This document shows, one piece after another, positions 2,258-27,471 of a stretch of DNA of 64,000 nt (position 1 is its first letter; each line of letters opens with the position of its first letter). The translations under genes and the position numbers were made by a program. The DNA is taken from the NCBI GenBank assembly GCA_026415435.1, contig JAOAHC010000041.1, positions 4,290-68,289 on the forward strand, given 5' to 3'. Origin of the DNA: Clostridia bacterium. Lineage in GTDB: Bacteria > Bacillota > Clostridia > TANB77 > CAG-465. A model generated the notes under the pieces. That model did no database searches. It saw nothing but the letters and a program-made list of their open reading frames with translations, and was not told where the DNA came from.

Positions 2258-3334
2258 ATGATACGTGTTAACTTTCTTCCAATATTAATAGTTTTATTTT
2301 TAGTATGGGAGTTATATAGAATTATTAAAATTAGAAAAAATGGGATAAATATTATAAGAGAGGTAGTTGTACAAGCTTTATTTGTCTATATTATGCTACT
2401 AATAAATGTTGTATTTTTCCCTATGAATTCTTACTTATATTATTGGAAATTTTCATACAATTTAACTCCTATAAAAGAAACTATTTTAATGATACAAGGA
2501 GCTAATATACACACATCACTTAGAAATATTATAGGTAATTTTATTTTGTTACTACCTTTAGGCACTTTCTTGCCAGTATTAGATTTAAATTATAGGAAAT
2601 GGTACAAGACTTTCTTTTTTGGAATTGCCGTATCATTGCTAATTGAAATATTGCAGTTAGTTTTAATGATAAGAATATTTGATATTGATGATATTCTCTT
2701 CAATTCTGTTAGTGTTGTTATTGGTTACTTAGTATACTACTTTATGAATAAGATTAGAGTATTTGATAATATACTTAAAAAGATAGAAAATACCAAAAAT
2801 ATAGCTTTTTTTAAAACTTATGCTATATCTGTGGGAAGCATTGTTAGTAGTATATTAATATTGTGGGTAATAAATTATTTTAATGCAACAATACCAACAA
2901 AAAATATTTTAGATGAGAATATTCAAGGAAGAATTGTTAGTAAATGTAATCAATTTGGCTATTATTTCATATTATCAGAAAAATCAAACAATGAGATTAT
3001 TGCTTATGGCTACAGAAATACTCCATTTAATAGGGTATCACTTGGCGTTACATCTACTCCCATAACTATGAATGAATATTCTAATTCATATAATTATATG
3101 GGAAATTCTACAGTAGATGAAAAAATGTTGTATGTAGTATATGGATATAATTCAATGGGAAAAATTAAATTGGTGGTTGAAAGTAATGGCCAAGAGATAA
3201 CAACTGAAATTCCAAAAGGATACTATATATTTCCATATAAATTTGAATTTGGTGGTAAATATTCCTTTAGTATAAGATTTTTTGATAGTGCAAATAAAGA
3301 TATAACATACATGTTTGATGGTAATGATAAATAA
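2258..3334 (+). CDS. VanZ-family membrane protein with an extra ~190-aa C-terminal extracytoplasmic domain
   Basis: N-terminal ~165 aa carry 4-5 hydrophobic helices with a VanZ-like pattern; C-terminal beta-rich domain follows one more TM; RBS gagggt. Confidence 0.55.
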   Translation: MIRVNFLPILIVLFLVWELYRIIKIRKNGINIIREVVVQALFVYIMLLINVVFFPMNSYLYYWKFSYNLTPIKETILMIQGANIHTSLRNIIGNFILLLPLGTFLPVLDLNYRKWYKTFFFGIAVSLLIEILQLVLMIRIFDIDDILFNSVSVVIGYLVYYFMNKIRVFDNILKKIENTKNIAFFKTYAISVGSIVSSILILWVINYFNATIPTKNILDENIQGRIVSKCNQFGYYFILSEKSNNEIIAYGYRNTPFNRVSLGVTSTPITMNEYSNSYNYMGNSTVDEKMLYVVYGYNSMGKIKLVVESNGQEITTEIPKGYYIFPYKFEFGGKYSFSIRFFDSANKDITYMFDGNDK

Positions 3335-3359
3335 GTATAAATAATAAATCTATTTAAAA

Positions 3360-3409
3360 CACCTAAAAATGTTAGATAAAAGTCTGATGTTTTTGGGTGT
3401 ATTTTTATA
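3360..3409 (+). terminator. putative rho-independent terminator after the vanZ-like gene (long-loop hairpin cacctaaaaa...tttttgggtg followed by a T-run)
   Basis: inverted repeat with one G-U wobble, followed by tatttttat. Confidence 0.35.
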
Positions 3410-3513
3410 ACAGAATACTAAAAAAATTATACATTAAAAGATAAATAATGCTGCATGTGAAAGTCAGATTTTGATATAAATTAGTCGTAATATAAATGTT
3501 ATTAAAAGTTTAT

Positions 3514-3541
3514 TGACAATATATTCAATATACTGTAAAAT
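3514..3541 (+). promoter_or_regulatory. sigma-A-type promoter for the giant surface-protein gene (TTGACA-N16-TAAAAT)
   Basis: consensus -35 TTGACA at 3514-3519, -10 taaaat at 3536-3541, then RBS aagaggt before the ATG at 3602. Confidence 0.5.
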
Positions 3542-3601
3542 AAACATATATAATATAAAATTAATATTTTATAAAAATACATATGTAAAAGAGGTAAAAT
3601 T

Positions 3602-6600
3602 ATGAGAAATATAAAAGGAATATCGCTAATAACGTTAGTAATAACGATAATAGTTATAATTATAATATCAACTGCAGTAATACTTACTGTAACTAATAAT
3701 ATAGGAGAACCAGCAGCTAGAGCAAGATTTATGAACGACATAAGAAATGTTGAAGATGCTATCTCTTTATATAAAACAAGTAAATATGCAAATAGCCAAA
3801 GCGAAAATATAAATCCTATAGATATAGATAAGGGAATATCAGGAATAGTAGATGTAACAACTCTATCAGATGGTTTAGTAAGCCATATGGAAGAAGTATT
3901 TGATACAACTATAGATACTAAACAAGGAAAACTATACTATGTAAAAATGTCTGATTTAAATTTGAACATAAGTAGTGCACCTGCAAAAGAAGGCGGATAT
4001 ATAACAAAGAATTCAAGTATAATACAAGATATGGATACCGGTAAAGTATTTTATGAAGAAGGACAAGATATAGGTAGTAAAAGATGGTATAGTATATATG
4101 GTGGAGCAGAAGTAGCAAGAGAAGAAATACTTCCAACGTTGCAGATGGAAGCAACTCCAGCACAAGAACCAGATACAGGAGCTACTACAGAAGTAAATGT
4201 AAAAATGCTAGCAAATAATGCAAACAGGATAGAGTATAGCTTAGATGGAGAGTCATATAGCTTGTATGAAGGAAGCTTCAGAGTATATGATAATGGAACA
4301 GTATATGGAAGGGCATTAAATGAAGTAGGAGAAGCAACAGACCAGTTAGACATAGTGAATATAAAGAAAGAACCTGACGTAGAAATAGTAGCAAATCCAG
4401 AACAGAAAATAGAAAATAAACCATCAGGAAATGTAACAGTAACAATAAATACAAGAAGTGCAGATGTGGTACAATATAGTTTTGATGGTGAAACGTATAC
4501 ACCATATAATGCGCCATTTATAGTAAATACAAATGGAACAATATATGCAAAGGCAATAAACACATACGGGGAATCAGAAGCTACAATAGAGATAATAACA
4601 ATAGGAGATGAACCACCTGTAGTAATAGCTTCAAAATGGGATAATGAAAATGAAGGAAATGAACCATTACTTACAAAGGGTGAAAACAGTACCCAAAAGA
4701 TCTTAAAACCAATGGAATGGGTAGGAAATGAGTGGAAAGAGGTAACAGACTTAGATAAAGTATGGTATTCATATAGTACAGACTCACAGTATTGGGCAAA
4801 TGCGCAAAGTGCAGATGGCTCAATGTGGGTATGGATACCAAGATTTGCATATAAGATAACTAGTGGTGTACATAGTAATACAGCAGGAACAGTAGATATA
4901 AAATTCATACAAGGTGATGCAGATGCACCATCAGGATATACTTTAGCATCGGCATTTGAAGTAGAGCCAAAAGTAGGAGAAAAACTACATTTACAAGGAA
5001 TATGGGTAGCAAAATTTGAAGCAAGTAAATTATCATATAAAGATGCAAATAATAAAACTAAGTATAGAATACAAGTAAAACCAGGAGTAGTAAGCTGGAG
5101 ATCAATAAGGATGAGAGATGCATTTAATTATTGCGTAAATATGAAAACAGATAGTGCATATGGTTTTGGAACAGATGGTATAAGTGTGGATACTCACTTG
5201 ATTAAAAACGGAGAATGGGATGCTATAACATACTTGACGCAAAGTAAATATGGAACAAAAGGTCAAGAAGTATGGTTAAATAATGACTACTATTTTAAAA
5301 CAGGACGTGCAGGAAAAACTGTTTCATCTAAGTATGGAGGAATAGTTAACACAAATACATATACATACGATAATGCAAAATATGGAGTAAATGCAAGTAC
5401 AACAAAGAATGTATATGGAATATATGATATGTCAGGTGGAGCAAAAGAAATGACAGCTTCATATGTAAATAATAATCATAGATTTATAAAATATTCAGGT
5501 GGAGTATATAGCGGTTTAGAAAAGTATTTTGACAAGTATCCTTCGTCTCAATTAGATAAAGATTACGCCGCAAAATCTCCAAATTCCACAGTAAGGCTTA
5601 GTATATCAAATCAGAATTATCAGTTGTTATCAGGATTAAATGATAGTAGCGTATATAATACTAGTAGTAGTACAGATTATAGATTTTTGTCTACACAGGT
5701 AAACTCATATAGTAGTTGGTTTTCAGACTATAGTATCTATCCACAAAATTCATCTCCTTTTATTGCAAGAGGAGGTAGCAGACCAGGAAGCACAGAAAAT
5801 CCAAAAGTAGGTATATATGCATATGAAGGCTATACAGGATATGCATCATCAGGAGTAGGCTTTAGACCAGTATTATCAATAAAAGAAGAAATAGAGATTA
5901 TGCCAGATAAGGTGGCAGAACCAAGTATATATGTAACATCAAAAATTGCCGAAGAAGGAACAGATATTGAGTTTCCGGAATATGAAGATACAAGTACAGT
6001 TTTAAAAACAGGAGAAAAAGTAGTAATAGCATATCCGAAAGAAGCAGAATATATGTACTATAAAAAGTGGACTTCAACAGCTGAACCTTCTACATGGACC
6101 TTAATAAATAATAGTGATGCTAACTTAGTATTTGACGAAGCTTCAGGAATGTATTTATATAGTATTACATATATACCTAGGTCAACAAAATTTAAGGCAT
6201 ATTGTAGTAAGGGGCCAGCAGCAACAGATTCAGAAGAGGATTATTTAGAAGTAATGTATGATACAACAAAACCAGGTGTAGTAATAACAGGACCAAATAA
6301 ATCAGGTATAAAACCAGGAGAGAGTGTAACATATACTATAGTATTTAGCGATAATACTAATGAATTAAACGAAGCAATATTAAATGAGAGCGACTTATAC
6401 GATAAGATAATTGTTAAAGCAGGAACAAGTATAATATCAGAAGATGAAATAACAAAAGTAGTAGAAGCAGATGCAAATGATATAAGTAAGTGGAATGTTA
6501 CTTTAAATGTAGATTCAGGTGTTACAAGAAATATATCAGGTGTGAAAATAGAAGTTCAAGCAGGAGCAGCAGAAGATTTATCAGGCAATAAAAGTAATCT

Positions 6601-8629
6601 AAAAAGCAGCTCGTCATTTTCAGTAGATAAAGCGGCACCAACAGTATCATTCTCACCAAACGGAGGGTTAGATAAGCCACTTAGTTCAAGGGTTACAGTA
6701 AGTGATACAGGAGGAAGTGGAGTAGATCCAAATTCTCTACAATATATATGGAGTGCAAGCGAAAGCGAACCTACAAGTGGATGGAATACATTTACGAGTG
6801 GAGCACTTATAACAGGTAGTGCATCAGTATCACAATATTTATGGATAAAATGTAGTGATAAAGCAGGAAATACAACAGTAACACAGTCTAACTTATTTGA
6901 AATGGATACGACACCTCCAAATAGTCCGACAATGGTAGCAAATCCAGTAGGATGGACTAATGGAAACGTATCAGTAACAATAACATATCCATCAGACACA
7001 AAAGTAAAAGAATATAGTTTAAATGGAACAACGTGGAGTAACTATGCATCTGCAATAGTAGTAAATACAAATGGGACAACAGTATATGCAAGAGGAAAAG
7101 ATGCGTCAGGTAATATAAGTGAAGCATCTACAATAACAATAACAAATATTGACAGAACAGCGCCAACAATTACATTTGGTACAAATGGTGGTGTTGATAT
7201 GGAAACAGCAAGTACTACAGTAAATGTGACGGATGTTGGAGGAGGAGTAAATGCAAGTACATTGCAATACATATGGGATACTCAAAACTTATCTGCTCCT
7301 ACAAGCGGCTGGACATCATTTACAAATGGGGCAACATTAACAAAATCAAATTACACAACAATATATTTATGGGTAAAAGCAACAGACAATGCAGGAAATT
7401 CTGTCACTATAGTATCAAATATGTTTAAAGCTTTAGAAGTACCTTCTGCAAATAAACCAGTGTTAGCACCAGGAATGACAGCAGTAAATTGGAATGGCTC
7501 TTCATGGGTAGCTGTAGCAAATCCTGATACAAATACTACATGGTATAACTATGACGGTAAACAATGGGCAAATGCAATGACAGCGGATGGATCAATGTGG
7601 GTATGGATACCAAGATATATATATAAGATAACAAGTGGTTGGCATACTCAATATGCAAGTGAAATACAGATACAATTTACTAGGGATACAAATGATGATT
7701 GGAATAGTAGTAAAATAGGTTTAATTGACCGTTCTCCGGGTGCAAGTGCATCAAATAACAAATGGACAAATCATCCAGCATTTACATTTGGAAGCACTGA
7801 AGTAAAAGGAATATGGGTAGCAAAATTTGAAGCAGGTGGAAGTACTAGTGCTGTGGATGTAAAACCAAATGTATCAGTATTAAGAATTTTGACTATTGAT
7901 TCTATGTTCACAGCATGTAGAATTATGGAGACAAACTCAAGATATGGTTGGGGTACAAGTGGAGCTGGAATAGATACGCATATGATGAAAAATATAGAAT
8001 TCGGTGCAGCTATGTATTTATCTAGTAGTAAATATGGAAAAAATGGTGAAGTATGGGTAAATCCACTTAACAGTTTTCTTACTGGTTATTCAGGTAAAGC
8101 TGCAAACTCTGGATCTCTAGGAATAGCTTCAACTTATCCATATTATGACACAACATATGGAGTAAATGCCGGTACAACAGGAAATGTATATGGTATATTT
8201 GATTTTAGTGGTTGTACTTGGGAAAGACTTGCAGCTTACATAGATAATAACAATGCAAATCTAACAACTTATGGGGCAAGTTTATATTATGCAGATCCAA
8301 AATACAAAGACGTATATACTAAAGCAACCTCTGAGTCTATAGTAAATAACTATAACCTTGCAGCAAGTAATAAAAAAGGAGACGCTGTATATGAGACTTC
8401 AAATGTAGGCAATGGAGGATCTTCAGGACATAATCAATGGTATGGTGGATTATCAAATATGCCATATTCAAGTAGCCCTTTCTTTATGAGAGGTGACTAT
8501 AATGGGGCGGGTTATAGTGGTAGTTCTTATGGCGCATATTCACTTTATCAAACTACTGGTACAAGTTCAGGTGATATTGGTAAGTATCAAGGTTTCCGTC
8601 CTGTTCTAATAGTAGCTGACGGAATATAG
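3602..8629 (+). CDS. giant (1675 aa) membrane-anchored surface protein: prepilin-like N-terminus, Ig/Fn3-like repeats, two FGE-sulfatase/DUF1566-like (C-type-lectin-fold) domains
   Basis: Single uninterrupted ORF with a strong promoter and RBS. N-terminus MRNIKG|ISLITLVITIIVIIII followed by a pilin-like helix PAARARFMNDIRNVEDAISLY. Two copies of a ~370-aa module containing WVWIPR, GIWVAKFEA, YGI(Y/F)D(M/F)SG and GFRPVL, which resemble the FGE motifs GLYDMSGNVWEW, RGGS and GFR. Repeated ~90-aa beta-sandwich units (TAPT(V/I)(S/T)F..NGG...LQYIW...PTSGW) lie between them. Confidence 0.8.
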   Translation: MRNIKGISLITLVITIIVIIIISTAVILTVTNNIGEPAARARFMNDIRNVEDAISLYKTSKYANSQSENINPIDIDKGISGIVDVTTLSDGLVSHMEEVFDTTIDTKQGKLYYVKMSDLNLNISSAPAKEGGYITKNSSIIQDMDTGKVFYEEGQDIGSKRWYSIYGGAEVAREEILPTLQMEATPAQEPDTGATTEVNVKMLANNANRIEYSLDGESYSLYEGSFRVYDNGTVYGRALNEVGEATDQLDIVNIKKEPDVEIVANPEQKIENKPSGNVTVTINTRSADVVQYSFDGETYTPYNAPFIVNTNGTIYAKAINTYGESEATIEIITIGDEPPVVIASKWDNENEGNEPLLTKGENSTQKILKPMEWVGNEWKEVTDLDKVWYSYSTDSQYWANAQSADGSMWVWIPRFAYKITSGVHSNTAGTVDIKFIQGDADAPSGYTLASAFEVEPKVGEKLHLQGIWVAKFEASKLSYKDANNKTKYRIQVKPGVVSWRSIRMRDAFNYCVNMKTDSAYGFGTDGISVDTHLIKNGEWDAITYLTQSKYGTKGQEVWLNNDYYFKTGRAGKTVSSKYGGIVNTNTYTYDNAKYGVNASTTKNVYGIYDMSGGAKEMTASYVNNNHRFIKYSGGVYSGLEKYFDKYPSSQLDKDYAAKSPNSTVRLSISNQNYQLLSGLNDSSVYNTSSSTDYRFLSTQVNSYSSWFSDYSIYPQNSSPFIARGGSRPGSTENPKVGIYAYEGYTGYASSGVGFRPVLSIKEEIEIMPDKVAEPSIYVTSKIAEEGTDIEFPEYEDTSTVLKTGEKVVIAYPKEAEYMYYKKWTSTAEPSTWTLINNSDANLVFDEASGMYLYSITYIPRSTKFKAYCSKGPAATDSEEDYLEVMYDTTKPGVVITGPNKSGIKPGESVTYTIVFSDNTNELNEAILNESDLYDKIIVKAGTSIISEDEITKVVEADANDISKWNVTLNVDSGVTRNISGVKIEVQAGAAEDLSGNKSNLKSSSSFSVDKAAPTVSFSPNGGLDKPLSSRVTVSDTGGSGVDPNSLQYIWSASESEPTSGWNTFTSGALITGSASVSQYLWIKCSDKAGNTTVTQSNLFEMDTTPPNSPTMVANPVGWTNGNVSVTITYPSDTKVKEYSLNGTTWSNYASAIVVNTNGTTVYARGKDASGNISEASTITITNIDRTAPTITFGTNGGVDMETASTTVNVTDVGGGVNASTLQYIWDTQNLSAPTSGWTSFTNGATLTKSNYTTIYLWVKATDNAGNSVTIVSNMFKALEVPSANKPVLAPGMTAVNWNGSSWVAVANPDTNTTWYNYDGKQWANAMTADGSMWVWIPRYIYKITSGWHTQYASEIQIQFTRDTNDDWNSSKIGLIDRSPGASASNNKWTNHPAFTFGSTEVKGIWVAKFEAGGSTSAVDVKPNVSVLRILTIDSMFTACRIMETNSRYGWGTSGAGIDTHMMKNIEFGAAMYLSSSKYGKNGEVWVNPLNSFLTGYSGKAANSGSLGIASTYPYYDTTYGVNAGTTGNVYGIFDFSGCTWERLAAYIDNNNANLTTYGASLYYADPKYKDVYTKATSESIVNNYNLAASNKKGDAVYETSNVGNGGSSGHNQWYGGLSNMPYSSSPFFMRGDYNGAGYSGSSYGAYSLYQTTGTSSGDIGKYQGFRPVLIVADGI
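4814..5023 (+). repeat. intragenic DNA repeat, copy 1 (FGE-like domain A), with near-identical stretches shared with 7586..7834
   Basis: A 31-mer gatggctcaatgtgggtatggataccaagat at 4814-4844 differs by 1 nt from 7586-7616. The 27-mer ggaatatgggtagcaaaatttgaagca at 4997-5023 is identical to 7808-7834. Confidence 0.7.
7586..7834 (+). repeat. intragenic DNA repeat, copy 2 (FGE-like domain B)
   Basis: see copy 1; the high nucleotide identity in patches contrasts with the otherwise diverged domain copies. Confidence 0.7.
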
Positions 8630-8667
8630 AAAGTAAATAATATTACAGGAAAATGAGATAGTAGATA

Positions 8668-8715
8668 AGAACACTGAGATTACATTTCGTAAAAATCAGT
8701 GTTCTTCTATTTGTA
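8668..8715 (+). terminator. putative terminator after the giant gene (aagaacactga...tcagtgttctt hairpin followed by a T-rich tract)
   Basis: an 11-bp inverted repeat with a 17-nt loop, followed by ctatttgtag; the T-run is weak. Confidence 0.35.
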
Positions 8716-8800
8716 GTTAAACGATTATAAATTTAAATTTACTTTTTATATTGTTTATGATATAATTATGAATATAAAATGTTTTTAGGAGGAATGCCAA

Positions 8801-9127
8801 TTGGGAGTTCTCATTTTCGCTTTTATTTTTACTTTTGGTATAATATCGTTTGTTTTTAGTCTTATTATGTTGCTTATAAAAAAACTGAAAAATAAGACTC
8901 CTTGCATATTAAAAGAAATAGAGACATTTACTATGAAAATATGCAATAACTTGGATAGTGTGTATAAAACTATAATTTTATTGATAATTCTATTACAGTT
9001 TCTATTATTCTGGGGATACAATATTCTTGGATATATACCAGTTAATGTAAACATTGTTTTTGGTGTACTTATGGCTTTTATACATTTTTTATTTTTTCAT
9101 AATAAGAATATATATACATATAAGTAA
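8801..9127 (+). CDS. small hypothetical membrane protein (108 aa, TTG start)
   Basis: RBS aggagg 8 nt upstream of TTG; two to three hydrophobic helices. A minus-strand ORF at 8785..9054 overlaps it; the plus-strand ORF was preferred because of its RBS and its orientation with the neighbouring genes. Confidence 0.4.
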   Translation: MGVLIFAFIFTFGIISFVFSLIMLLIKKLKNKTPCILKEIETFTMKICNNLDSVYKTIILLIILLQFLLFWGYNILGYIPVNVNIVFGVLMAFIHFLFFHNKNIYTYK

Positions 9128-14207: not shown

Positions 14208-14274
14208 TGCATACAATCATAATATATTTAATTTATAATATATTTATATTGATTAATATATTGTGAGGGTGATT

Positions 14275-15060
14275 ATGTTGAAAAAATTTTGTGTTTTGGG
14301 TACTGATAAAAGAAGTGTTAAGCTAAGAGAAATGTATATAAGTGAAAAGGTGCAAATAACAAGTTATGATAAAGCAGAAGTAGTAATAGCACCTGTACCA
14401 TTTTCAAGGGATGAAATAAATATAACTGGTGAAATACTAACATGTGATGAATTAATTAATGTTATGTCAAATACAAAGAATATTCTATTTTCAGGAGCTA
14501 TATCAGATAGTATAAAAGAAAAATTAAATCAAAATAGAATTGAATTTTATGATTTATTTGATATAGAAGAAGTAGCTATAATGAATGCTATTCCAACAGC
14601 TGAAGGTGCTATATGTCTTGCTATGGAAAATACTGAGTATACTTTGCATAATTCAAATGTATTAATAACTGGATATGGCAGAATAGGAAAAATACTTGCT
14701 AAAATGCTAGTTGGTATAGGTGCAAATGTATATTGTGAAGCTAGAAATGAAAAAGATTTGGCAATGATTGAGGCAATGGGATATAATAGTGTGAGATTGA
14801 ATGACATGGATAGTTTTTTAGGGGAGATAGACATAGTATATAATACAATTCCAACCTTAATTTTTGATGAAACCAGATTAAAGCTATTAAAAAAAGATGT
14901 TCTTATTATTGATCTTGCTTCAAATCCTGGTGGAGTTGATTTTACAAAAGCAAAAGAACTTGAAAAAAATGTTATTTGGGCATTATCACTTCCCGGAAAA
15001 GTTGCACCAGTATCTGCAGCTAAATATTTAAAAAATGCTATAGATAAGTTATTAAAATAA
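14275..15060 (+). CDS. DpaA-like protein (dipicolinate synthase subunit A family / NAD(P)-binding), with no dpaB partner downstream
   Basis: ATG at 14275 after gagggtg; central Rossmann motif ITGYGRIGKILAKML; overall layout like SpoVFA; no flavoprotein B subunit follows. Confidence 0.45.
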   Translation: MLKKFCVLGTDKRSVKLREMYISEKVQITSYDKAEVVIAPVPFSRDEINITGEILTCDELINVMSNTKNILFSGAISDSIKEKLNQNRIEFYDLFDIEEVAIMNAIPTAEGAICLAMENTEYTLHNSNVLITGYGRIGKILAKMLVGIGANVYCEARNEKDLAMIEAMGYNSVRLNDMDSFLGEIDIVYNTIPTLIFDETRLKLLKKDVLIIDLASNPGGVDFTKAKELEKNVIWALSLPGKVAPVSAAKYLKNAIDKLLK

Positions 15061-15069
15061 TAGTCATAC

Positions 15070-15098
15070 TTGAATAATTACTAAAAATGTGGTATAAT
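15070..15098 (+). promoter_or_regulatory. sigma-A-type promoter TTGAAT-N17-TGgTATAAT for the first small paralog
   Basis: extended -10 at 15090-15098. Confidence 0.5.
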
Positions 15099-15152
15099 AT
15101 TGCGATAATCTTTAAAATATCACTAAATAGATTTAGGAGGTATGTAGGAGTA

Positions 15153-15509
15153 ATGACTGATTTGTCAGAATACACTTTTGAGGGGCTTATAAAAGAAATA
15201 AAACGAAATGAATTTTTAGATTTAATCACTAATGTTCGGTTTTCTGTAATTGAAATTGAAGGAGATGTACTGAAACTAAATTTAAAAGATTGTAAATCTA
15301 TAGTAGTTGCATCGGAATTTATAATGAGTTTGTATAGGGAAATTCCAAAAGTCGAGGTTTATATAAAAGGCAATTTAAATCCGGTTGAAATAAACAAAAT
15401 ATACTTTACTTTTAATAATGTTGAAGTTGAGACTGAAAAAGGAGTGACATACCAAGATATGCTGGAGAGATTTAAACTTGACAATATTAACAAAAAAATA
15501 ACCATATAA
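15153..15509 (+). CDS. small acidic protein, paralog 1 of an unknown family (118 aa)
   Basis: ATG at 15153 after aggagg/taggag; shares a core (I/V)RF(S/K)VI..E.G.L......KS(I/F)..VA.EFI..(F/L)(Y/F)(R/K) with the next two ORFs. The listed 15087 start lies inside the promoter. Confidence 0.6.
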   Translation: MTDLSEYTFEGLIKEIKRNEFLDLITNVRFSVIEIEGDVLKLNLKDCKSIVVASEFIMSLYREIPKVEVYIKGNLNPVEINKIYFTFNNVEVETEKGVTYQDMLERFKLDNINKKITI

Positions 15510-15540
15510 ACTATAATATAAATTCAAGGAGGGTTTAACT

Positions 15541-15894
15541 ATGGCAGAAGAATTAAAAATTAAATTCAGTGAAGAAAAGTTTAAGAAATTAGTGGAGACT
15601 GATGAATTCATGGATCTGAAAACTGGAGTGCGGTTTAAAGTAATTGGGTTTGAAAATGGTGCACTTGTGGTTAACTGCAATACCTCAAAATCGATTGAAA
15701 ATGTGGCTGAGTTTATTATAAGTTTTTATAGGGATCAAGGCTGTAGTATAGAAATATGTGAAAATGATAAATGTATAGAACTTAGTAATATACTATTAGT
15801 ATTTTGTGATACTAAAATTGAAGTTAATGAAAAATCTCTTATTAAAGAAGTAATTGATGCATATTACCATATGAAGAGAGACGATAAACTTTAA
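15541..15894 (+). CDS. small acidic protein, paralog 2 (117 aa)
   Basis: RBS aaggaggg; conserved core VRFKVIGFENGALVVNCNTSKSIENVAEFIISFYR. Confidence 0.6.
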   Translation: MAEELKIKFSEEKFKKLVETDEFMDLKTGVRFKVIGFENGALVVNCNTSKSIENVAEFIISFYRDQGCSIEICENDKCIELSNILLVFCDTKIEVNEKSLIKEVIDAYYHMKRDDKL

Positions 15895-15904
15895 ATTATA
15901 AAAA

Positions 15905-15943
15905 AAGATTGAATTTATAAATGTAATTTCAATCTTTTTTTTA
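15905..15943 (+). terminator. rho-independent terminator (agattgaa...ttcaatct followed by T8)
   Basis: 8-11 bp stem followed by tttttttt. Confidence 0.65.
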
Positions 15944-15954
15944 TGTTTACTAGG

Positions 15955-15983
15955 TTGAAATTTTATGTAAAACATGATATAAT
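15955..15983 (+). promoter_or_regulatory. sigma-A-type promoter TTGAAA-N17-TGaTATAAT for paralog 3
   Basis: consensus -35 and an extended -10. Confidence 0.55.
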
Positions 15984-16030
15984 ATATATAAATAATGTGT
16001 GGACTATCCTAAACTTAAGGGGGTTAAAAT

Positions 16031-16405
16031 ATGTTGGGCAGAGATTTTCTTGTTTTTGATGGAAATTTATCCGATTGTGGACCATATGAGTATGAATATG
16101 AATGTGATTCAACAAAAATACGGTTTAAAGTAATTTCTTATGAGGTGGGTATACTTAAAATCGAAATAAAATCTAATACATCATTTATAGTAGTAGCTGA
16201 TTTTTTATCTAAATTCTTTAAACAGGAAGAAAAGCTACAAGTATGGGAAATTAGGGGGCAATATAGTAAAGCTAATATTAAAAAAATTTGTTATATATTT
16301 GGAGAAATAGAAGAAACGTTTGATTTTGATTCATCGGTTAGCACTATTATAACTAATTACTATTTAAAGGTTGCTGAAAAAAAGCAAGAAAAATATAAGA
16401 TATAA
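16031..16405 (+). CDS. small acidic protein, paralog 3 (124 aa)
   Basis: RBS aagggggt; conserved core IRFKVISYEVGILKIEIKSNTSFIVVADFLSKFFK. Confidence 0.6.
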   Translation: MLGRDFLVFDGNLSDCGPYEYEYECDSTKIRFKVISYEVGILKIEIKSNTSFIVVADFLSKFFKQEEKLQVWEIRGQYSKANIKKICYIFGEIEETFDFDSSVSTIITNYYLKVAEKKQEKYKI

Positions 16406-16430
16406 GCACTCAATTGAGTGCTTTATTTTT
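16405..16430 (+). terminator. rho-independent terminator (GCACTCAATTGAGTGC palindrome followed by a T-run)
   Basis: perfect 8-bp stem with no spacer, followed by tttattttt. Confidence 0.65.
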
Positions 16431-16498
16431 ATGTTTATATTGTAAAATTTAAATTTATGTTGTATCATATATATGTATTAATTAGATTAAATGATAGG

Positions 16499-17347
16499 AT
16501 GATGAATTTGGGACAAATAATTGATGTAAAAGGTATAGTTGAAAAAAGAAAAGAAGCATTAAAATTAAAAATAGATAAACTAAATGATAGAAATATAGTG
16601 CCAAAGCTTGCTGTTATTTTGGCAAGTTTTGATGAGGCTTCAAAAATATATGTTGGCAAAAAGAAAAGATTGTGTGAAGAATTTAAAATACTACAAGAAG
16701 AATATATTTATGATGAAAATGTTACTGAAGATGAGTTATTAAATTTAATAGATAAACTTAATAATGATGATACAGTTGATGGAATTTTAATACAACTTCC
16801 TTTATTTAAACATTTGGATGAAAAAAAGATATTAAATTATATAAAACCAACAAAGGATGTTGATGGATTTCATCCAGTAAATTTGGGAAACTTAGTTGCT
16901 GGTTCAAAAGGAATAGTGTCATGTACTCCAAAAGGAATAATTACAATTTTAGAAGACATAGGTGAAGATATAAAAGGTAAAAATGCTGTTGTAATAGGTA
17001 GGAGCGTTATAGTTGGAAAGTCTATTGCACATCTACTTTTAAATAAAGATGCAACCGTAACAATATGCCATTCAAAGACTAAAAATCTAGAGTATTATAC
17101 TAAAAATGCTGATATTTTAGTAGTTGCAGTTGGTATTCCTAAATTTATAAAATCAGATATAATAAAAGAGGGTTCTGTAGTAATAGATGTTGGAATAAAT
17201 AGGGTAGATGGCAAAGTTGTAGGTGATGTAGATACGGAGGATGTCTTAGAAAAAGTTAAATATGTAACGTCAGTTCCTGGAGGAGTTGGAATTACAACTG
17301 TATTATCTCTTATTGAGAATGTGGCAGATGTTGCTAGTTTAAGATAA
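16499..17347 (+). CDS. folD: bifunctional methylenetetrahydrofolate dehydrogenase / methenyl-THF cyclohydrolase
   Basis: True start MMNLGQ after gatagg; motifs GRS.IVGKS, HSKT and PGGVGP-like (VPGGVGITT); the listed 16418 start adds a spurious hydrophobic leader. Confidence 0.9.
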   Translation: MMNLGQIIDVKGIVEKRKEALKLKIDKLNDRNIVPKLAVILASFDEASKIYVGKKKRLCEEFKILQEEYIYDENVTEDELLNLIDKLNNDDTVDGILIQLPLFKHLDEKKILNYIKPTKDVDGFHPVNLGNLVAGSKGIVSCTPKGIITILEDIGEDIKGKNAVVIGRSVIVGKSIAHLLLNKDATVTICHSKTKNLEYYTKNADILVVAVGIPKFIKSDIIKEGSVVIDVGINRVDGKVVGDVDTEDVLEKVKYVTSVPGGVGITTVLSLIENVADVASLR

Positions 17348-17491: not shown

Positions 17492-18514
17492 ATGGAAAAA
17501 CTAGTAATATATAATAAACATAAAATATTTTTATATACAGAAGCAATATTATATTTTGTATTAATTGTCTTTATAATTTTTTTACACATATATGGTAACA
17601 TATACATAAGACTAGTTCCTCTATTATTTTTTTTGGGATTACTTGGTAATATGCTATTTGACAGGCCTATACTTACTAGTACATATGGATCGATAATTAC
17701 ATATACATTACTTTATATGCATGGTTCTACTAATGTTTTAGAAAATCTATATAGTTGTGTTTTTGTTTTTATTTCAATATGGTCTGGTGAGATCTTAGGA
17801 GAGTTTTTACATAAATTACATGATCATTATAACAAAGTGGAAGTTATTTCATTTAATAAAAAAATATATCTTTATGTGATGACTGCTGTTTTTATAGTTG
17901 GACCTGTATTATTTAATACATATATTAATGGAGATATTTTTAAGTATAACGAAGCAAAACTAAAATTTAATAATTATATATCACAAAATTATAATAATAT
18001 AGTAATTGTTAATTCAAGATACAACTCACTTAAACCTTCCGGATATATATTTGAAGTTAAAAATATTGATCCACAAAATACTTCGAAAATATATAATATT
18101 TCAGTATATACAAATAATAATATTTATGATGAGTATAAAGATACTATAATAGAAAAAAATAATATTAGTTATAAACAAAGTCTTACTAGTTTTATAAAAG
18201 ATAAAAATATAGATAACGAATATACCGATTTTGAATTTGACTTAGTATTTGAAAATGATTCTAGTATTTTGAAAATACAAAAAACAGTAAAAGATATTGA
18301 TGATTTGCAGCTTGATAATTTTTCAAGCGAACTAGTAAATATATTAGAAAAATTTAAAGAATTTAATTTGTATAATAGAATATCAAAACTATCAATTAGC
18401 ATTAAATCATATAACAATAGTATTCAAGAGGCAATAATATATAAACAAAATTTTGATAATAAGTCTGATTATTTTAAAGATAGCTTAAAAACAGAATATA
18501 TAGAAGAAAATTAA
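17492..18514 (+). CDS. hypothetical membrane protein (4-5 N-terminal TM helices plus an Asn/Lys/Tyr-rich soluble domain)
   Basis: good promoter and RBS; AT-biased third positions; no recognisable family. Confidence 0.55.
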   Translation: MEKLVIYNKHKIFLYTEAILYFVLIVFIIFLHIYGNIYIRLVPLLFFLGLLGNMLFDRPILTSTYGSIITYTLLYMHGSTNVLENLYSCVFVFISIWSGEILGEFLHKLHDHYNKVEVISFNKKIYLYVMTAVFIVGPVLFNTYINGDIFKYNEAKLKFNNYISQNYNNIVIVNSRYNSLKPSGYIFEVKNIDPQNTSKIYNISVYTNNNIYDEYKDTIIEKNNISYKQSLTSFIKDKNIDNEYTDFEFDLVFENDSSILKIQKTVKDIDDLQLDNFSSELVNILEKFKEFNLYNRISKLSISIKSYNNSIQEAIIYKQNFDNKSDYFKDSLKTEYIEEN

Positions 18515-18535
18515 TAGTGTACAAAGGAGGAAAAT

Positions 18536-19432
18536 GTGAGAAAGAGACATCACAAAAGAAGATTATCACTCATAACTGATGTATTAATATTTATAGTTTT
18601 GTTAGTTATAGCTTCTCCATTTTTAAAACTGCTTAATTCAAATTCAATCGAAAAGCAAATAAATTATGAAAGCGTATTGGCACTTAATAATAGTGAAATT
18701 CTTGAAAAAAGTATTAAAGAACAAAATAAGCTTTTTATACAAAAAATAAAAGAATATTATGGTATTAGTATTAAATATGGAGATGAAACTAAAGGTTTGG
18801 CTACAAATGTAAATGCAGTTGGACAATATGATGATAATATTGTAAACAACAATATTATATTGATACAAAATGCACTTGAAAAATATCCTAAAACTTTATT
18901 TGATACATTTAAAAATGGATCAGTTAAGTGTAGTGTCTCAATAATATTGCTAGATAAATTTAATAACAACAATTTAGCACTTGCATCTAAAAACGGTGTA
19001 AATGATTTTAAAATATATTTAAGTAATACGCAAAAGTTTGAAAGAGCTTTTCATCATGAAGTGTTTCATATTATGGAATATTATATGCAAGCTGCAACTA
19101 ATGTACAAATCATATATCCTAATTGGAATAATCTAAACCCATTTGATTTTTCATATACAACTGATTTATCCAAGATAGATAATAAATATGTATATGCCTC
19201 AAGGACTGATTTATCCAAGATATATTTTGTAAGTAAATATTCTAAAACTTCAGCTAAAGAAGATAGAGCAGAAATCTTTGCTGAACTAATGATTATGAAT
19301 AAAAAATCAGAATATTTAAAAGATGGTCAAAATATAAGAAAAAAAGCTGAATATATTTCACAGATAATAGATAAAAATTTAAAAAACTTAAGAGTTGTTG
19401 AGACTAAATATTGGAATAACTATATAAAGTAA
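18536..19432 (+). CDS. membrane-anchored putative zincin-like metallopeptidase (HExxH)
   Basis: Positively charged N-terminus followed by one TM helix (LITDVLIFIVLLVIASPF). HHEVFHIMEY matches a HExxH zinc site, with a candidate third ligand in EDRAEIFAELM about 70 aa downstream. Translationally coupled to 17492..18514 across a 21-nt gap. Confidence 0.5.
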   Translation: MRKRHHKRRLSLITDVLIFIVLLVIASPFLKLLNSNSIEKQINYESVLALNNSEILEKSIKEQNKLFIQKIKEYYGISIKYGDETKGLATNVNAVGQYDDNIVNNNIILIQNALEKYPKTLFDTFKNGSVKCSVSIILLDKFNNNNLALASKNGVNDFKIYLSNTQKFERAFHHEVFHIMEYYMQAATNVQIIYPNWNNLNPFDFSYTTDLSKIDNKYVYASRTDLSKIYFVSKYSKTSAKEDRAEIFAELMIMNKKSEYLKDGQNIRKKAEYISQIIDKNLKNLRVVETKYWNNYIK

Positions 19433-19461
19433 TTGAAAATATGCGCCAAGTGTGATATAAT
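19433..19461 (+). promoter_or_regulatory. promoter TTGAAA-N17-TGTGATATAAT overlapped by the GC-rich inverted repeat GCGCCA...TGGCGC
   Basis: consensus -35 and extended -10; inverted repeat 19443-19448 / 19471-19476. Confidence 0.45.
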
Positions 19462-19505
19462 CACCACAAATGGCGCTTATTTGCATTTTTTGGGGATGAA
19501 TTTTA

Positions 19506-21104
19506 ATGAGTTTTATAAAAATAGGAAAAAATTATTCAAATGTTATCTTAAAAACATTTTGTATATATATATTAATGTTAATATGCTCAAATATTTATAT
19601 TTGGGCTGATTCTGTTAATAATGGTACAAGTACGGCTTTAAATACTGAAAATAAAATTGATAATAATAGTTATTCAGAAATGCAGAATGTATTAAACAAT
19701 ATAAGAGAAGAAATAAATGAAATGGACGTTAAGCTACAAAAAATAAGATCTAAAAGTGAATATCAAGCATATCCAGCAGTAAGACTTAATGTTGACACCC
19801 CAATATTTGGTATATATTCTGTTACAAATAGAAGATTAAAAATAACAGAAGATGTATCACCAGCTGATATAACTAGCGGCTATTCTATAAGAGATATTAT
19901 AAAATCTAATAAGCTTAAAGTACCTAGTTTTAAAGTGGTATCTTTTGTAGTTATAACAAGAGATATAAAAATTAATAATTCTATGACTAAATCTGATTAT
20001 AATATTTGTATTAATAAACTTCTTAAGTATTTAGAAGTAGCAAAAAATATTAACAATTCAATAGATAGTCAAATAAATAATATATTAAATTCATATAAAG
20101 GTAAAGATATAATTGAACTTAAAAATAAGTTAAATGACAATTTAAATGAAATAAATAATGAAAATCAAATTGTTATAGATTCGATAAATAAACTAAACTT
20201 ACTTCAGTATGATGGAGCATATGATTATTACAAGCAATCATATGATATTAAACAAAGTGTTGATGAATTTTCAAAATTAATAAATAATTCCCTTACAAAT
20301 GATGAAAATATAAAAAATATTGAGAGTAATGTTGCAAAAATAAAATCAAGCACGGATATTCTTAAGGAGAAAGTAGAAAACTCATATAATGAAAGTATAA
20401 AAAATATTGATAAACTTAAAATGTTGACTTACGTACAACAAAAAATGGATGATCAAATTAACTATTTAAATCAATATATAAAAAATAGCCAAAAAGACCT
20501 AAATATGGGTATAGACTATACACAAAGTTTGAATATAAGTGATGCATATATTATGGATAGTAATATTATATACAATATTACATCTAGAAATATTTTAAAA
20601 GAACTTGAAAACTATAAAGATATTGTAGATTCAAAAATAATTGAACTTAGTGAAACTAATAGTTCTGATGTTCAAAATATTGATACAACTACATTAACTC
20701 AAACAGGGAATGAAATTAATGCAACAAATAAGTTAGATTCAGATCTTGAACTTATTCAAAAAATAAATACAATATATATTGATTTTTTGAATAAAACGCA
20801 CACATTTATTTTAAATAATATAAATTTTCTTAATAATAAATCAAAAAATGATATATCATATCTGACAATGAATACATCTATAGAAATATATAATTATATA
20901 GAATATGTTTATTCAAATCTACCTAATATTGTTGAAAAAACAGAGCAAAGTATAGATAAAAATAGTATATATAGTTTAAGTAATACTGTACAAAATTTAA
21001 AAATTGAACTTAATAATATAAATCAATATAGCGTACAGATTGATGGGTTATACATTCAAAACTATAAAACTACCAGTGTAGATAGGAGTAGTAATTCTAG
21101 GTAA
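19506..21104 (+). CDS. secreted Asn/Ile/Lys-rich coiled-coil protein (532 aa), hypothetical
   Basis: N-terminal signal peptide (cleavage near IWA|DS); long heptad-like low-complexity helical regions; RBS ggggatga. Confidence 0.5.
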   Translation: MSFIKIGKNYSNVILKTFCIYILMLICSNIYIWADSVNNGTSTALNTENKIDNNSYSEMQNVLNNIREEINEMDVKLQKIRSKSEYQAYPAVRLNVDTPIFGIYSVTNRRLKITEDVSPADITSGYSIRDIIKSNKLKVPSFKVVSFVVITRDIKINNSMTKSDYNICINKLLKYLEVAKNINNSIDSQINNILNSYKGKDIIELKNKLNDNLNEINNENQIVIDSINKLNLLQYDGAYDYYKQSYDIKQSVDEFSKLINNSLTNDENIKNIESNVAKIKSSTDILKEKVENSYNESIKNIDKLKMLTYVQQKMDDQINYLNQYIKNSQKDLNMGIDYTQSLNISDAYIMDSNIIYNITSRNILKELENYKDIVDSKIIELSETNSSDVQNIDTTTLTQTGNEINATNKLDSDLELIQKINTIYIDFLNKTHTFILNNINFLNNKSKNDISYLTMNTSIEIYNYIEYVYSNLPNIVEKTEQSIDKNSIYSLSNTVQNLKIELNNINQYSVQIDGLYIQNYKTTSVDRSSNSR

Positions 21105-21129: not shown

Positions 21130-21588
21130 ATGTCAAATAATAAGTCACAAAACTATGTTAATATAAATAATAGAGAAATTAATTATAAATATGATGTATT
21201 GGAAAAAATAGAATGTGGCATAGAATTAAAGGGAACAGAAGTAAAATCAATACGAGATGCCATGTGTAATTTAAAAGATAGTTTTGCTATTATAAAAAAT
21301 GGTCAAGTTGTGCTTAAAAATATGTACATTAATCCCTATGAAATGGGTAATATTAACAATTCAAATCCAACAAGAGATAGAAAATTATTACTTAATAAAT
21401 TAGAAATATTAAAACTATATAATAACCTTAAACAAGGTGGATATACACTTGTACCAAATAGAATATATACTAAAGGTAGATGGATAAAATTAGAACTTGC
21501 CATATGTAAGGGTAGAAAACTCTACGATAAAAGGCAAGCTCTAAAAGATAAACAAGCAAAAAAACAAATTAATGCATTTAAATTATAA
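21130..21588 (+). CDS. smpB: SsrA-binding protein
   Basis: GTEVKS(I/L)R, LKDSFA, NPYE and RKLLL motifs; 152 aa. Confidence 0.85.
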   Translation: MSNNKSQNYVNINNREINYKYDVLEKIECGIELKGTEVKSIRDAMCNLKDSFAIIKNGQVVLKNMYINPYEMGNINNSNPTRDRKLLLNKLEILKLYNNLKQGGYTLVPNRIYTKGRWIKLELAICKGRKLYDKRQALKDKQAKKQINAFKL

Positions 21589-21893
21589 GAGTAAGTTAGT
21601 TATTTTTATTAGTTTTTCTTGTTCAGTCATAATAGGTGTAGTTTGTAAATTCTGTTTTGCTACAGTTTGTAAACAAATACCTCTGTTATTAAATCCAATT
21701 GCAGATATAGAAAGAATATTTTGACTCAATATTAAAAAAAATTGGGACAAAATATTTTGTTCTTCTGGTAGTAAATCCTTTGTCAAAATTATAGAAAATA
21801 TGGCTGCTGCGATTACTATATCAAATCCACAATTGTTGACTGTATAACAATCTAGCGAATGGTTAGTAATGTTATCTGTAAATGTAGTATTCA
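21583..21893 (-). CDS. small Cys-containing protein Z (103 aa), third gene of a minus-strand operon
   Basis: ATG at 21893 preceded by GTGAGGA; its stop overlaps the smpB stop in a TTATAA; hydrophobic central segment; 4 Cys. Confidence 0.45.
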
Positions 21894-21920
21894 TAATAAT
21901 CCTCACTAAAAATTATATTT

Positions 21921-22214
21921 TTAATCTTCCTCTATATTTACAGAAATAGCTACTATATGTTCTTTACACTTATTAGGTAGACATATTTCCGTAGTATAAT
22001 TTGTAAATATATTTCGTATAATCGCATAAACACCATTTTGTATTAAAACTGTAGCAAAATTTTCTTCAACATTTATTACATTTAATGTAAAACAATTTTG
22101 TAAGGCTACTGTCTGAGATGTTTCAGTTATTGTAACCATCTTTCTATTTACTTCCTTAAAGCATTTATTGCAACAAGTATCCACTATACTTAGTTGAACG
22201 ATAAAATCATCCAT
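21921..22214 (-). CDS. small Cys-rich protein Y (97 aa) with an N-terminal CC.KC motif
   Basis: ATG at 22214 preceded by AAGGATGTGA; 7 Cys including TCCNKC near the N-terminus; beta-rich composition. Confidence 0.5.
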   Translation of the reverse strand: MDDFIVQLSIVDTCCNKCFKEVNRKMVTITETSQTVALQNCFTLNVINVEENFATVLIQNGVYAIIRNIFTNYTTEICLPNKCKEHIVAISVNIEED

Positions 22215-22239
22215 AAAAATCACATCCTTAATAATAAGT

Positions 22240-22569
22240 CTAATCCGAACAATAAAGATTTGAAATGCCACAAGGGGCTAGAGTTGCACCTATATAAACT
22301 CTATACGTTCCACATTCACATGGTAAATCGAATACTCTAAAACTCCCATTAGGTATATTAAAAACTGTGGCGGGTAAACTTATATCATTTGATATGGAAA
22401 TGGTGGCAACATTACCAGTTCCATTCAAAAATGTTAACTTGTATCCGAAACTTAAATCAATAACGGTATTAGCATTAACGCTTGTATGTAAATTATCAAA
22501 GTTTCTTGTAATACCATTTTGACAAGTAAGTTGTCGTATATTTAATGTATAACAGCATGAACCTTCCAT
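22240..22569 (-). CDS. small Cys-rich protein X (109 aa) with an N-terminal SCC motif and C-terminal CxC...C...C
   Basis: ATG at 22569 preceded by GAGAGG; 7 Cys; beta-strand-like N/T/S/I/V-rich sequence; no signal peptide. Confidence 0.5.
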   Translation of the reverse strand: MEGSCCYTLNIRQLTCQNGITRNFDNLHTSVNANTVIDLSFGYKLTFLNGTGNVATISISNDISLPATVFNIPNGSFRVFDLPCECGTYRVYIGATLAPCGISNLYCSD

Positions 22570-22781
22570 AATATATAACCTCTCTAATATTAAATTATGT
22601 ATTTGTAATATAATATGATAGTATTAAGTATAATGTGTATACTTTAAAATATATATTTCTTAAGTATGATAAAAATCACTTTGTAGTTAACATAAGTTGA
22701 ATTTTTATTGAGAATATGATATAATATTAGTTAGAATATTAATATTATATCAAAACTAATTGGTTTAAAGGAGAGCATAGT

Positions 22782-23165
22782 ATGGATTATTACATGCATA
22801 TTGAGAAAATAATTGAGATTATGGAGAGAAATACTGGTAATCAGAATCTTCTTATTAATGATCTTAATTCAAATGAAGGAAATAAAATTGCTTCTTCACT
22901 TGTATACTTAAAAGGCTACATTGAATCCTTAATAAATACACAGAGAATTACTAGTTTAGAAGCTACACCAATTATTACTTTTATCATAGGAAGCATATCT
23001 ATATGTAATCAGTTAAAAGTTTTCTTAGAATATATGTTGCTAGTAGAAAAAATTGCAGAAAAAGGTGTACTAGATAACATATCATCACAAAGAGAAAATT
23101 TTGAAATTATGTATGAGGTAGTAAAAGGAATAAGCAATAAGTTTTCTGATTTATATTCTTTGTAA
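22782..23165 (+). CDS. hypothetical protein (127 aa)
   Basis: RBS aaggagag; own terminator downstream; no recognisable motif. Confidence 0.45.
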   Translation: MDYYMHIEKIIEIMERNTGNQNLLINDLNSNEGNKIASSLVYLKGYIESLINTQRITSLEATPIITFIIGSISICNQLKVFLEYMLLVEKIAEKGVLDNISSQRENFEIMYEVVKGISNKFSDLYSL

Positions 23166-27442: not shown

Positions 27443-27471
27443 TTGAAAAAATGAGTATCCTGTGATATAAT
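27443..27471 (+). promoter_or_regulatory. sigma-A-type promoter TTGAAA-N17-TGaTATAAT for the glycopolymer locus
   Basis: consensus -35 and extended -10. Confidence 0.5.

Follow-up and report, generated by a model that had tools for sequence, protein, structure and literature searches.

Three small genes, which we call P1, P2, and P3, form together with their own transcription signals a lineage-specific insertion into a conserved and probably cotranscribed gene pair, dpaA-like and folD, on a chromosome segment of an uncultured "Clostridia bacterium" metagenome-assembled genome (MAG). The segment was analyzed over its whole length of 64 kb (here, the window; G+C content, 26%) and lies on a contig of 69.7 kb, where the locus carries the tags N2749_05235 to N2749_05250 and the genes follow each other in the order DpaA-like, P1, P2, P3, and folD. 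Our overall explanation is that the triplet is an autonomous accessory cassette that encodes small soluble binding proteins. As this explanation mixes an account of evolution with a weak guess at function, we give it a probability of about 0.55. Its evolutionary and anatomical part is very likely in its own right, while a mode of action by binding, of the type found in genetic conflicts, is a tentative suggestion made by analogy.

The insertion extends over 1,438 nt (∼1.44 kb; positions 15061 to 16498, + strand), from the stop codon of the dpaA-like gene to the start codon of folD (16499 to 17347, + strand; Pfam THF_DHG_CYH and THF_DHG_CYH_C), the true start of which (MMNLGQIIDVK) was set from its orthologs. 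We compared this junction with those in 11 related contigs whose DpaA-like proteins are 53 to 68% identical to the one in the window (L001, L002 [the same contig as L003], L004, L005, L006, L009, L031, and L083 to L086). These relatives share the block queA-tgt-cls-patatin-dpaA-like-folD, and in all of them the last two genes either overlap or are separated by a gap of 1 to 26 nt, with no triplet in between. Since folD abuts dpaA-like in the 11 relative contigs, the triplet is a lineage-specific insertion. In the window, folD is now parted from dpaA-like by two terminators, and the insertion has probably uncoupled folD from dpaA-like transcription.

P1 (15153 to 15509; 118 amino acids [aa]; MCX8074972.1), P2 (15541 to 15894; 117 aa; MCX8074973.1), and P3 (16031 to 16405; 124 aa; MCX8074974.1), all on the + strand, are real protein-coding paralogs. 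A Shine-Dalgarno sequence precedes each open reading frame (ORF) (AGGAGG/GGAG for P1, AAGGAGGG for P2, and AAGGGGG for P3), and the codon-position pattern (GC1>GC2) is that of other genes in the window. The pairwise identities are 34% over 87 aa (E = 1e-12 by BLASTP), 31% over 67 aa (E = 6e-11), and 36% over 39 aa (E = 2e-6). Aligning the three proteins reveals the conserved core T-x-(V/I)-R-F-x-V-I-x-x-E...S...F; P3 has diverged furthest and differs from the others at its N terminus. At the DNA level, similarity is kept only in this core, and divergence is near saturation elsewhere. The retention of the core despite near-saturated DNA, together with the intact ORFs, argues for purifying selection on the protein. 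These results bear out an earlier note on this DNA, which had described three tandem genes of these lengths, each with its own ribosome-binding site, as old and diverged copies of a small protein without a known family and had written their shared core in roughly this form.

The G+C contents at third codon positions are 0.23 in P1, 0.21 in P2, and 0.18 in P3, compared with a window mean of 0.152 (standard deviation [SD], 0.033), which is mildly consistent with a foreign origin or with weak codon adaptation. As a separate observation on codon use, the invariant arginine of the (V/I)RF motif is encoded in all three copies by the rare codon CGG (15237 to 15239, 15631 to 15633, and 16121 to 16123). 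Only 4 of the 542 arginine codons in 57 ORFs of the window are CGG, three of them being those just listed, and 433 are AGA. At the CGG site, P2 and P3 are identical at 15 of 15 nt (CGGTTTAAAGTAATT) despite the near-saturated DNA divergence elsewhere; this shared stretch suggests local gene conversion or a constraint at the nucleotide level.

The three genes are organized into two transcription units, P1-P2 and P3. Predicted promoters lie upstream of P1 (15070 to 15098, + strand; TTGAAT, a 17-nt spacer, and a TG-extended TATAAT) and upstream of P3 (15955 to 15983, + strand; TTGAAA, a 17-nt spacer, and a TG-extended TATAAT), and judging from their sequences, both are near-consensus sigma-A sites of the extended −10, housekeeping type. 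Five sites in the window fit the strict pattern TTGAA-N15-TGnTATAAT, where 0.07 would be expected. All five sites are on the + strand and just upstream of ORFs, and those before P1 and P3 are two of them; the other three precede a 532-aa ORF (19433 to 19461), a 127-aa ORF (22697 to 22725; ORF at 22782 to 23165), and glmM (27443 to 27471).

Intrinsic terminators were found after P2 (15900 to 15949, + strand), where an 18-bp A/U-rich hairpin (15900 to 15941) is followed by a U8 tail, and after P3 (16404 to 16431, + strand), where an 8-bp GC-containing hairpin (16404 to 16423) is followed by a U run. The predicted RNA fold of the former has a free energy (ΔG) of −16.9 kcal/mol (z = −6.35; 0 of 200 shuffles were as good), and that of the latter has a ΔG of −14.3 kcal/mol (z = −4.78). 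No terminator follows the DpaA-like gene. There is also none after P1: P2 begins 31 nt downstream of it, and this gap folds weakly and contains neither a promoter nor a terminator. The two units follow from this distribution, with terminators only after P2 and P3. The consensus promoters that the earlier note had assigned to the first and third genes were therefore recovered, at 15070 and 15955. Of the terminators that it had given to the same two genes, the one of P3 was found, whereas the other sits after P2 and not after P1, and the claim that all three genes are transcribed separately has to be given up since P1 and P2 form one unit. No riboswitch or other RNA element was detected in the insertion or upstream of folD (no Rfam match at E values up to 1).

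The internal repeats of the insertion bear on how the array arose. Repeat families D1, D2, and D5 recur with a spacing of 394 nt from P1 to P2 and of 488 to 490 nt from P2 to P3, and a T-run-ATGTTTA motif recurs after both terminators. Together, the spacing and the recurring motif point to units that were duplicated in tandem, one of them together with a terminator. We propose that one founder gene, or a ready-made array, inserted at the junction and that a founder would then have expanded by tandem duplication in units of ∼394 and ∼490 nt, the second of which would have taken in the terminator tail. Among themselves, the paralogs are 24 to 34% identical (66 to 76% differences), compared with 65 to 68% identity (∼32 to 35% differences) between the flanking genes and their orthologs in the nearest relative, and the Kimura-corrected distances are ∼1.6 and 0.42, respectively. 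Because the paralogs are so much more diverged than the flanking orthologs, either the copies would have evolved about fourfold faster than housekeeping genes after the insertion, or the divergence would have taken place in a donor that has not been sampled, from which the array came in one piece.

P2 and P3 are bracketed by an inverted repeat of 32 nt (28/32 complementary), with its left arm at 15470 to 15501, in the 3′ end of the P1 coding sequence, and its right arm at 16423 to 16454, just after the P3 terminator. The significance of this repeat is borderline, as the best of 60 dinucleotide shuffles reached 27/32, with 23 to 24 being typical. Its reverse strand reads ...MIQHKFKFYNINIKIK, which recalls the P1 C terminus, MLERFKLDNINKKITI. 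Either chance or the remains of a fourth, inverted copy could account for the repeat. When the window and 82 related loci were searched in six frames with a hidden Markov model (HMM), no fourth copy was found, and an origin of the family from a flanking gene likewise received no match.

The triplet family is without a detectable homolog in ∼15 billion proteins and without a significant fold match. Apart from the three query proteins, nothing was recovered by a word-index profile search across 5.8 billion clusters, and an exhaustive HMMER profile search of 1.84 billion representative proteins added to them only P0124, which we rejected as the translation of a low-complexity repeat. No homolog was found by back-translated DNA scans of GTDB genomes, IMG/VR, and JGI metagenomes or by tblastn against phage and plasmid records, and a sequence search of the PDB gave no match. 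Searches of Pfam, NCBIfam, PHROGs, and PADLOC produced nothing above the thresholds, including the anti-phage defense models of PADLOC and the immunity families described in Pfam, NCBIfam, and PADLOC, and the family libraries thus hold no well-characterized family to which the paralogs could be assigned. P2 reached 23.7 bits against the eukaryotic Pfam family DUF4780 (cutoff, 24.5; E = 3.9e-5; 85 residues), but as this score is below the cutoff and P1 and P3 are unmatched, we treat it as probably a compositional near-miss.

AlphaFold models of P1 and P3, built from the three-sequence alignment, agree on a β-β-β-α core followed by a flexible loop and a β-β-α element (five strands and two long helices in all). 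The P1 model has an extra N-terminal helix, and P3 is modeled without this first helix. The predicted local distance difference test (pLDDT) score is 70.9 for P1 and 71 for P3, rising to 85 to 92 in the core of the latter, and the predicted template modeling (pTM) scores are 0.63 to 0.65. Both models are mixed α/β, contrary to the beta-rich character that had been expected from the sequence. The proteins are acidic, as had also been expected (isoelectric point [pI], 4.9 to 5.3), but not distinctively so, given pI values of 5.2 and 5.9 for their DpaA-like and FolD neighbors; the grand average of hydropathy (GRAVY) of the three proteins is negative.

Foldseek comparison of the two models with the PDB yielded nothing significant (no E value below 0.01). 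In BFVD, the N-terminal half of the P1 model resembles several uncharacterized phage proteins of 63 to 85 aa (target TM score, 0.6 to 0.83; E ∼ 1e-2, not significant), a weak hint that the modeled fold could be a small phage-like one. The α-β3-α topology of the same half had seemed to resemble a double-stranded RNA-binding domain (dsRBD), an idea that we dropped because no dsRBD was among the PDB matches and P3 is without the first helix. An internal duplication of a β-β-α unit was rejected at the sequence level (hhalign probability of 0.2% between the N-terminal and C-terminal halves). No catalytic, metal-binding, or cofactor motif was seen in P1 to P3; what they share is a single conserved strand, T-x-(V/I)-R-F-x-V-I-x-x-E.

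The gene upstream of the insertion (14275 to 15060, + strand; ORF at 14263/14275 to 15060; 261 aa) encodes an N-terminally short, orphan homolog of dipicolinate synthase subunit A, named DpsA by NCBI. It passes the NCBIfam model PRK08306 (DpsA; 268.9 bits; cutoff, 261), fails the stricter model TIGR02853 (spore_dpaA; 202.3 bits; cutoff, 319.65), and matches the DpaA chains 2RIR (E = 8e-38) and 3D4O (E = 2e-32) in the PDB. In Pfam, 2-Hacid_dh_C is matched, and DpaA_N is matched partially (profile positions 49 to 116 of 116 only; 31.1 bits; cutoff, 29.2). The PRK08306 alignment begins at model position 31, and the protein is ∼30 residues shorter at the N terminus. The score above the PRK08306 cutoff and the match to 2RIR confirm the earlier identification of this gene as DpaA-like. 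Its description as an orphan also holds, as dpaB was found neither after it nor anywhere in the window (tblastn; best E value, 0.69), and close relatives likewise have none within 6 kb.

To place this orphan state in the clade, we counted the genes directly downstream of dpaA in 82 species-level loci: dpaB in 34, uppP in 33 (usually followed by folD), folD in 8, another gene in 3, and the end of the contig in 4. The counts show that the orphan dpaA is a clade-wide trait of uncultured, mostly gut-derived Clostridia and not an oddity of this genome. The conserved arrangement in the clade without dpaB is dpaA-uppP-folD or dpaA-like-folD, and the folD-adjacent form of dpaA is the one that is ∼30 aa shorter at the N terminus. 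A canonical dpaB adjoins dpaA only in distant relatives (≤ ∼48% identity to the DpaA-like protein) and never in the close clade, and because of this limit, the DpaA-like call stands. In one relative lineage, a gene for an IS605-family OrfB/TnpB protein (Cas12f-like) occupies the position of patatin, immediately upstream of dpaA-like (L084, 2725 to 3882; L085, 1426 to 2583). A search of the literature on orphan dpaA or on a dpaA-folD link found nothing specific, and dpaA is known to be present in non-spore-formers too (bioRxiv 10.1101/2022.02.25.481979). The clade-wide orphan dpaA, a by-product of the analysis, may be of more general use, as it warns against taking dpaA as a marker of sporulation or dipicolinate.

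As for function, we propose that the cassette would be an accessory module that works on its own and is driven by strong promoters of the housekeeping type, as predicted above. Its products, small, mildly acidic, and predicted to be soluble α/β proteins, would act stoichiometrically by binding other macromolecules and not by catalysis, and the diverged copies could cover variant targets in the manner of orphan immunity, antitoxin-like, or phage-derived moron proteins. The likeness to conflict genes comes from the tandem diverged paralogs, their extreme taxonomic restriction and apparent rapid divergence, and the constitutive promoters; an immunity or other conflict role is a guess made by analogy. 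In a bolder and unlikely version of the proposal, a new small α/β family, born de novo or evolving too fast for homology to be detected, would constitute a strongly and constitutively expressed conflict module (immunity against a toxin, anti-phage, or anti-defense), with each copy directed at a different target variant, and the CGG codon and the 32-nt inverted repeat would be hints of nucleotide-level regulation or array recombination.

Several observations weigh against the accessory-cassette explanation. The locus is supported by a single MAG contig, with no independent assembly. The insertion carries no hallmark of a mobile element: there is neither an integrase nor a transposase, no target-site duplication, and no break in composition, its total G+C content being equal to that of the host. 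A repeat search of the insertion turned up nothing convincing in the way of target-site duplications or of the terminal repeats that would bound a mobile element, and the segment is not flanked by genes of phages or mobile elements. Even the nearest relative in the sample is distant (68% identity), and gain is favored over repeated loss by parsimony only. The triplet has no gene for a toxin, a secretion system, or a phage protein beside it and no homolog elsewhere with a context to inspect, and an immunity or conflict role is suggested by analogy.

Two alternatives tie the triplet to the neighboring gene, and both had been raised in the earlier note. The paralogs could take the place of DpaB as alternative partner subunits of the orphan DpaA-like dehydrogenase, a reading that draws on the same-strand position of P1 to P3 directly after dpaA-like without a terminator in between and on the absence of dpaB from the window. 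We regard this as barely credible, as the orthologs in the 11 related contigs have folD abutting and no paralogs, 33 further dpaB-less loci have uppP in that position, and the paralogs carry their own promoters. They also show no signature of a flavoprotein or another cofactor family in Pfam or NCBIfam, and no similarity to PF02441-type flavoproteins or to DpaB was seen (the DpaB proteins of L017 and L039 gave E = 8.6 at best, with P1). Since close orthologs do without the triplet, an obligatory partnership is ruled out, and we infer that the triplet is functionally unconnected to the DpaA-like enzyme, their adjacency being an accident of insertion. Alternatively, P1 to P3 could be sporulation-associated proteins (coat, forespore, or regulatory) encoded beside a sporulation gene. 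Spore coats often contain small, lineage-specific proteins that evolve fast, and a dpaA homolog is next door. Yet this is very unlikely: no sporulation family in Pfam or NCBIfam was matched, the predicted promoters are of the sigma-A and not of the sigma-E/K/F/G type, and no sporulation gene was identified among ∼50 ORFs of the window that were scanned. Moreover, dpaA also occurs in non-spore-formers, as noted above, and the place beside dpaA-like is due to insertion and not to conserved linkage.

Two further alternatives concern the reality and the age of the insertion. The ORFs could be evolutionary noise, that is, young de novo or decaying ORFs without a selected function, or an artifact of MAG assembly, in keeping with the lack of homologs, the single contig, and a third-position G+C content slightly off the genome norm. 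Three intact ORFs of 117 to 124 codons at 26% G+C, a protein core kept while the DNA approached saturation, maintained consensus ribosome-binding sites, promoters, and terminators, and a modeled core with pLDDT values of up to 85 to 92 make this improbable, and the syntenic genes on both flanks speak against a chimeric join. The triplet could also be ancestral at the junction and have been lost in all sampled relatives. The deep divergence of the paralogs hints at age, and with the nearest relative only 68% identical, sampling near this genome is sparse. However, such a history would need the triplet to have been lost from each lineage sampled in the folD-adjacent clade, while the outgroup arrangement, dpaA-uppP-folD, is also without the triplet, the short gaps or overlaps in the relatives (1 to 26 nt) contain neither remnant ORFs nor extended spacers, and no homolog was found anywhere else. 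We therefore consider an ancestral triplet quite unlikely and prefer the insertion of an accessory cassette.

The genes around the triplet are housekeeping genes. Upstream of dpaA-like, the window contains a relA fragment and genes for a metallo-β-lactamase (MBL) hydrolase, uracil-DNA glycosylase (UDG), VanZ, and a 1,675-aa surface protein, followed by queA, tgt, and genes for cardiolipin synthase and patatin. Downstream of folD are three proteins without an assignment and then smpB, era, recO, glmS, glmM, and a large glycosyltransferase cluster. The segment between UDG and queA (2258 to 9127), with VanZ, the 1,675-aa protein, and a hydrophobic 108-aa ORF, has a local G+C content of 0.34, compared with 0.26 for the window; in the relative L001, queA lies ∼550 nt downstream of UDG. 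The 1,675-aa protein, which has no Pfam match, combines a pilin-like hydrophobic N terminus with immunoglobulin-like repeats and with a ∼300-aa domain that is present twice and ends in GFRPVL. Synteny with the relatives is lost directly after folD (17492 to 21104), where they have small ORFs and then hrcA-grpE-dnaK-dnaJ, and the window has proteins of 340, 298, and 532 aa and then smpB. The 298-aa protein has weak matches only (LIC13305-like and Peptidase_Mx1-like), and the other two have none. Between smpB and era, the − strand carries three successive ORFs (107, 116, and 109 aa; 21583 to 22569), none of which has a Pfam match. Although smpB is present, ARAGORN found no transfer-messenger RNA (tmRNA) or tRNA gene anywhere in the window.

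As it stands, the triplet is a well-delimited, lineage-restricted orphan gene family in a MAG of uncultured gut-type Clostridia, and as such it adds one more case to a phenomenon that is already well known. Orphan families of this kind occur widely and can rarely be worked out unless further genomes or a culture are at hand. If the cassette is functional, it would add a small-protein family without relatives in more than 15 billion sequences and would offer a clean case of an autonomous promoter-gene-terminator unit that split a conserved chromosomal pair and then amplified in place.

Among known systems, DpaA (SpoVFA) of Bacillus (PDB 2RIR and 3D4O) is a counterpart of the upstream gene only, with which it shares sequence homology, the Rossmann GYGRIG motif, and membership in PRK08306; the gene in the window differs in its shorter N terminus and in failing TIGR02853. 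Unlike in the dpaA-dpaB (spoVF) pair, no dpaB is adjacent or in the window, and the clade pairs dpaA with folD or uppP-folD. The triplet itself can be compared with the orphan immunity-gene arrays of polymorphic-toxin or type VII secretion systems (T7SS), such as the tandem EsaG/DUF600 paralogs in Staphylococcus. It matches no known immunity family and has no toxin or secretion gene nearby, its neighbors being patatin, dpaA-like, and folD. What it has in common with such arrays, tandem, same-strand, diverged paralogs of small, mildly acidic proteins predicted to be cytoplasmic, is generic and not diagnostic, and the triplet is likewise lineage restricted, apparently fast evolving, and predicted to be constitutively expressed. 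Phage morons are autonomous promoter-gene-terminator cassettes inserted between conserved genes. The triplet is set apart from them by its place in chromosomal housekeeping DNA and not in a prophage and by the lack of a PHROG or phage-genome match. It resembles them in the fold of its N-terminal half, which is weakly similar to small uncharacterized phage proteins at the nonsignificant level given above, in its own strong predicted promoter and terminator, and in its insertion between genes that are adjacent in relatives.

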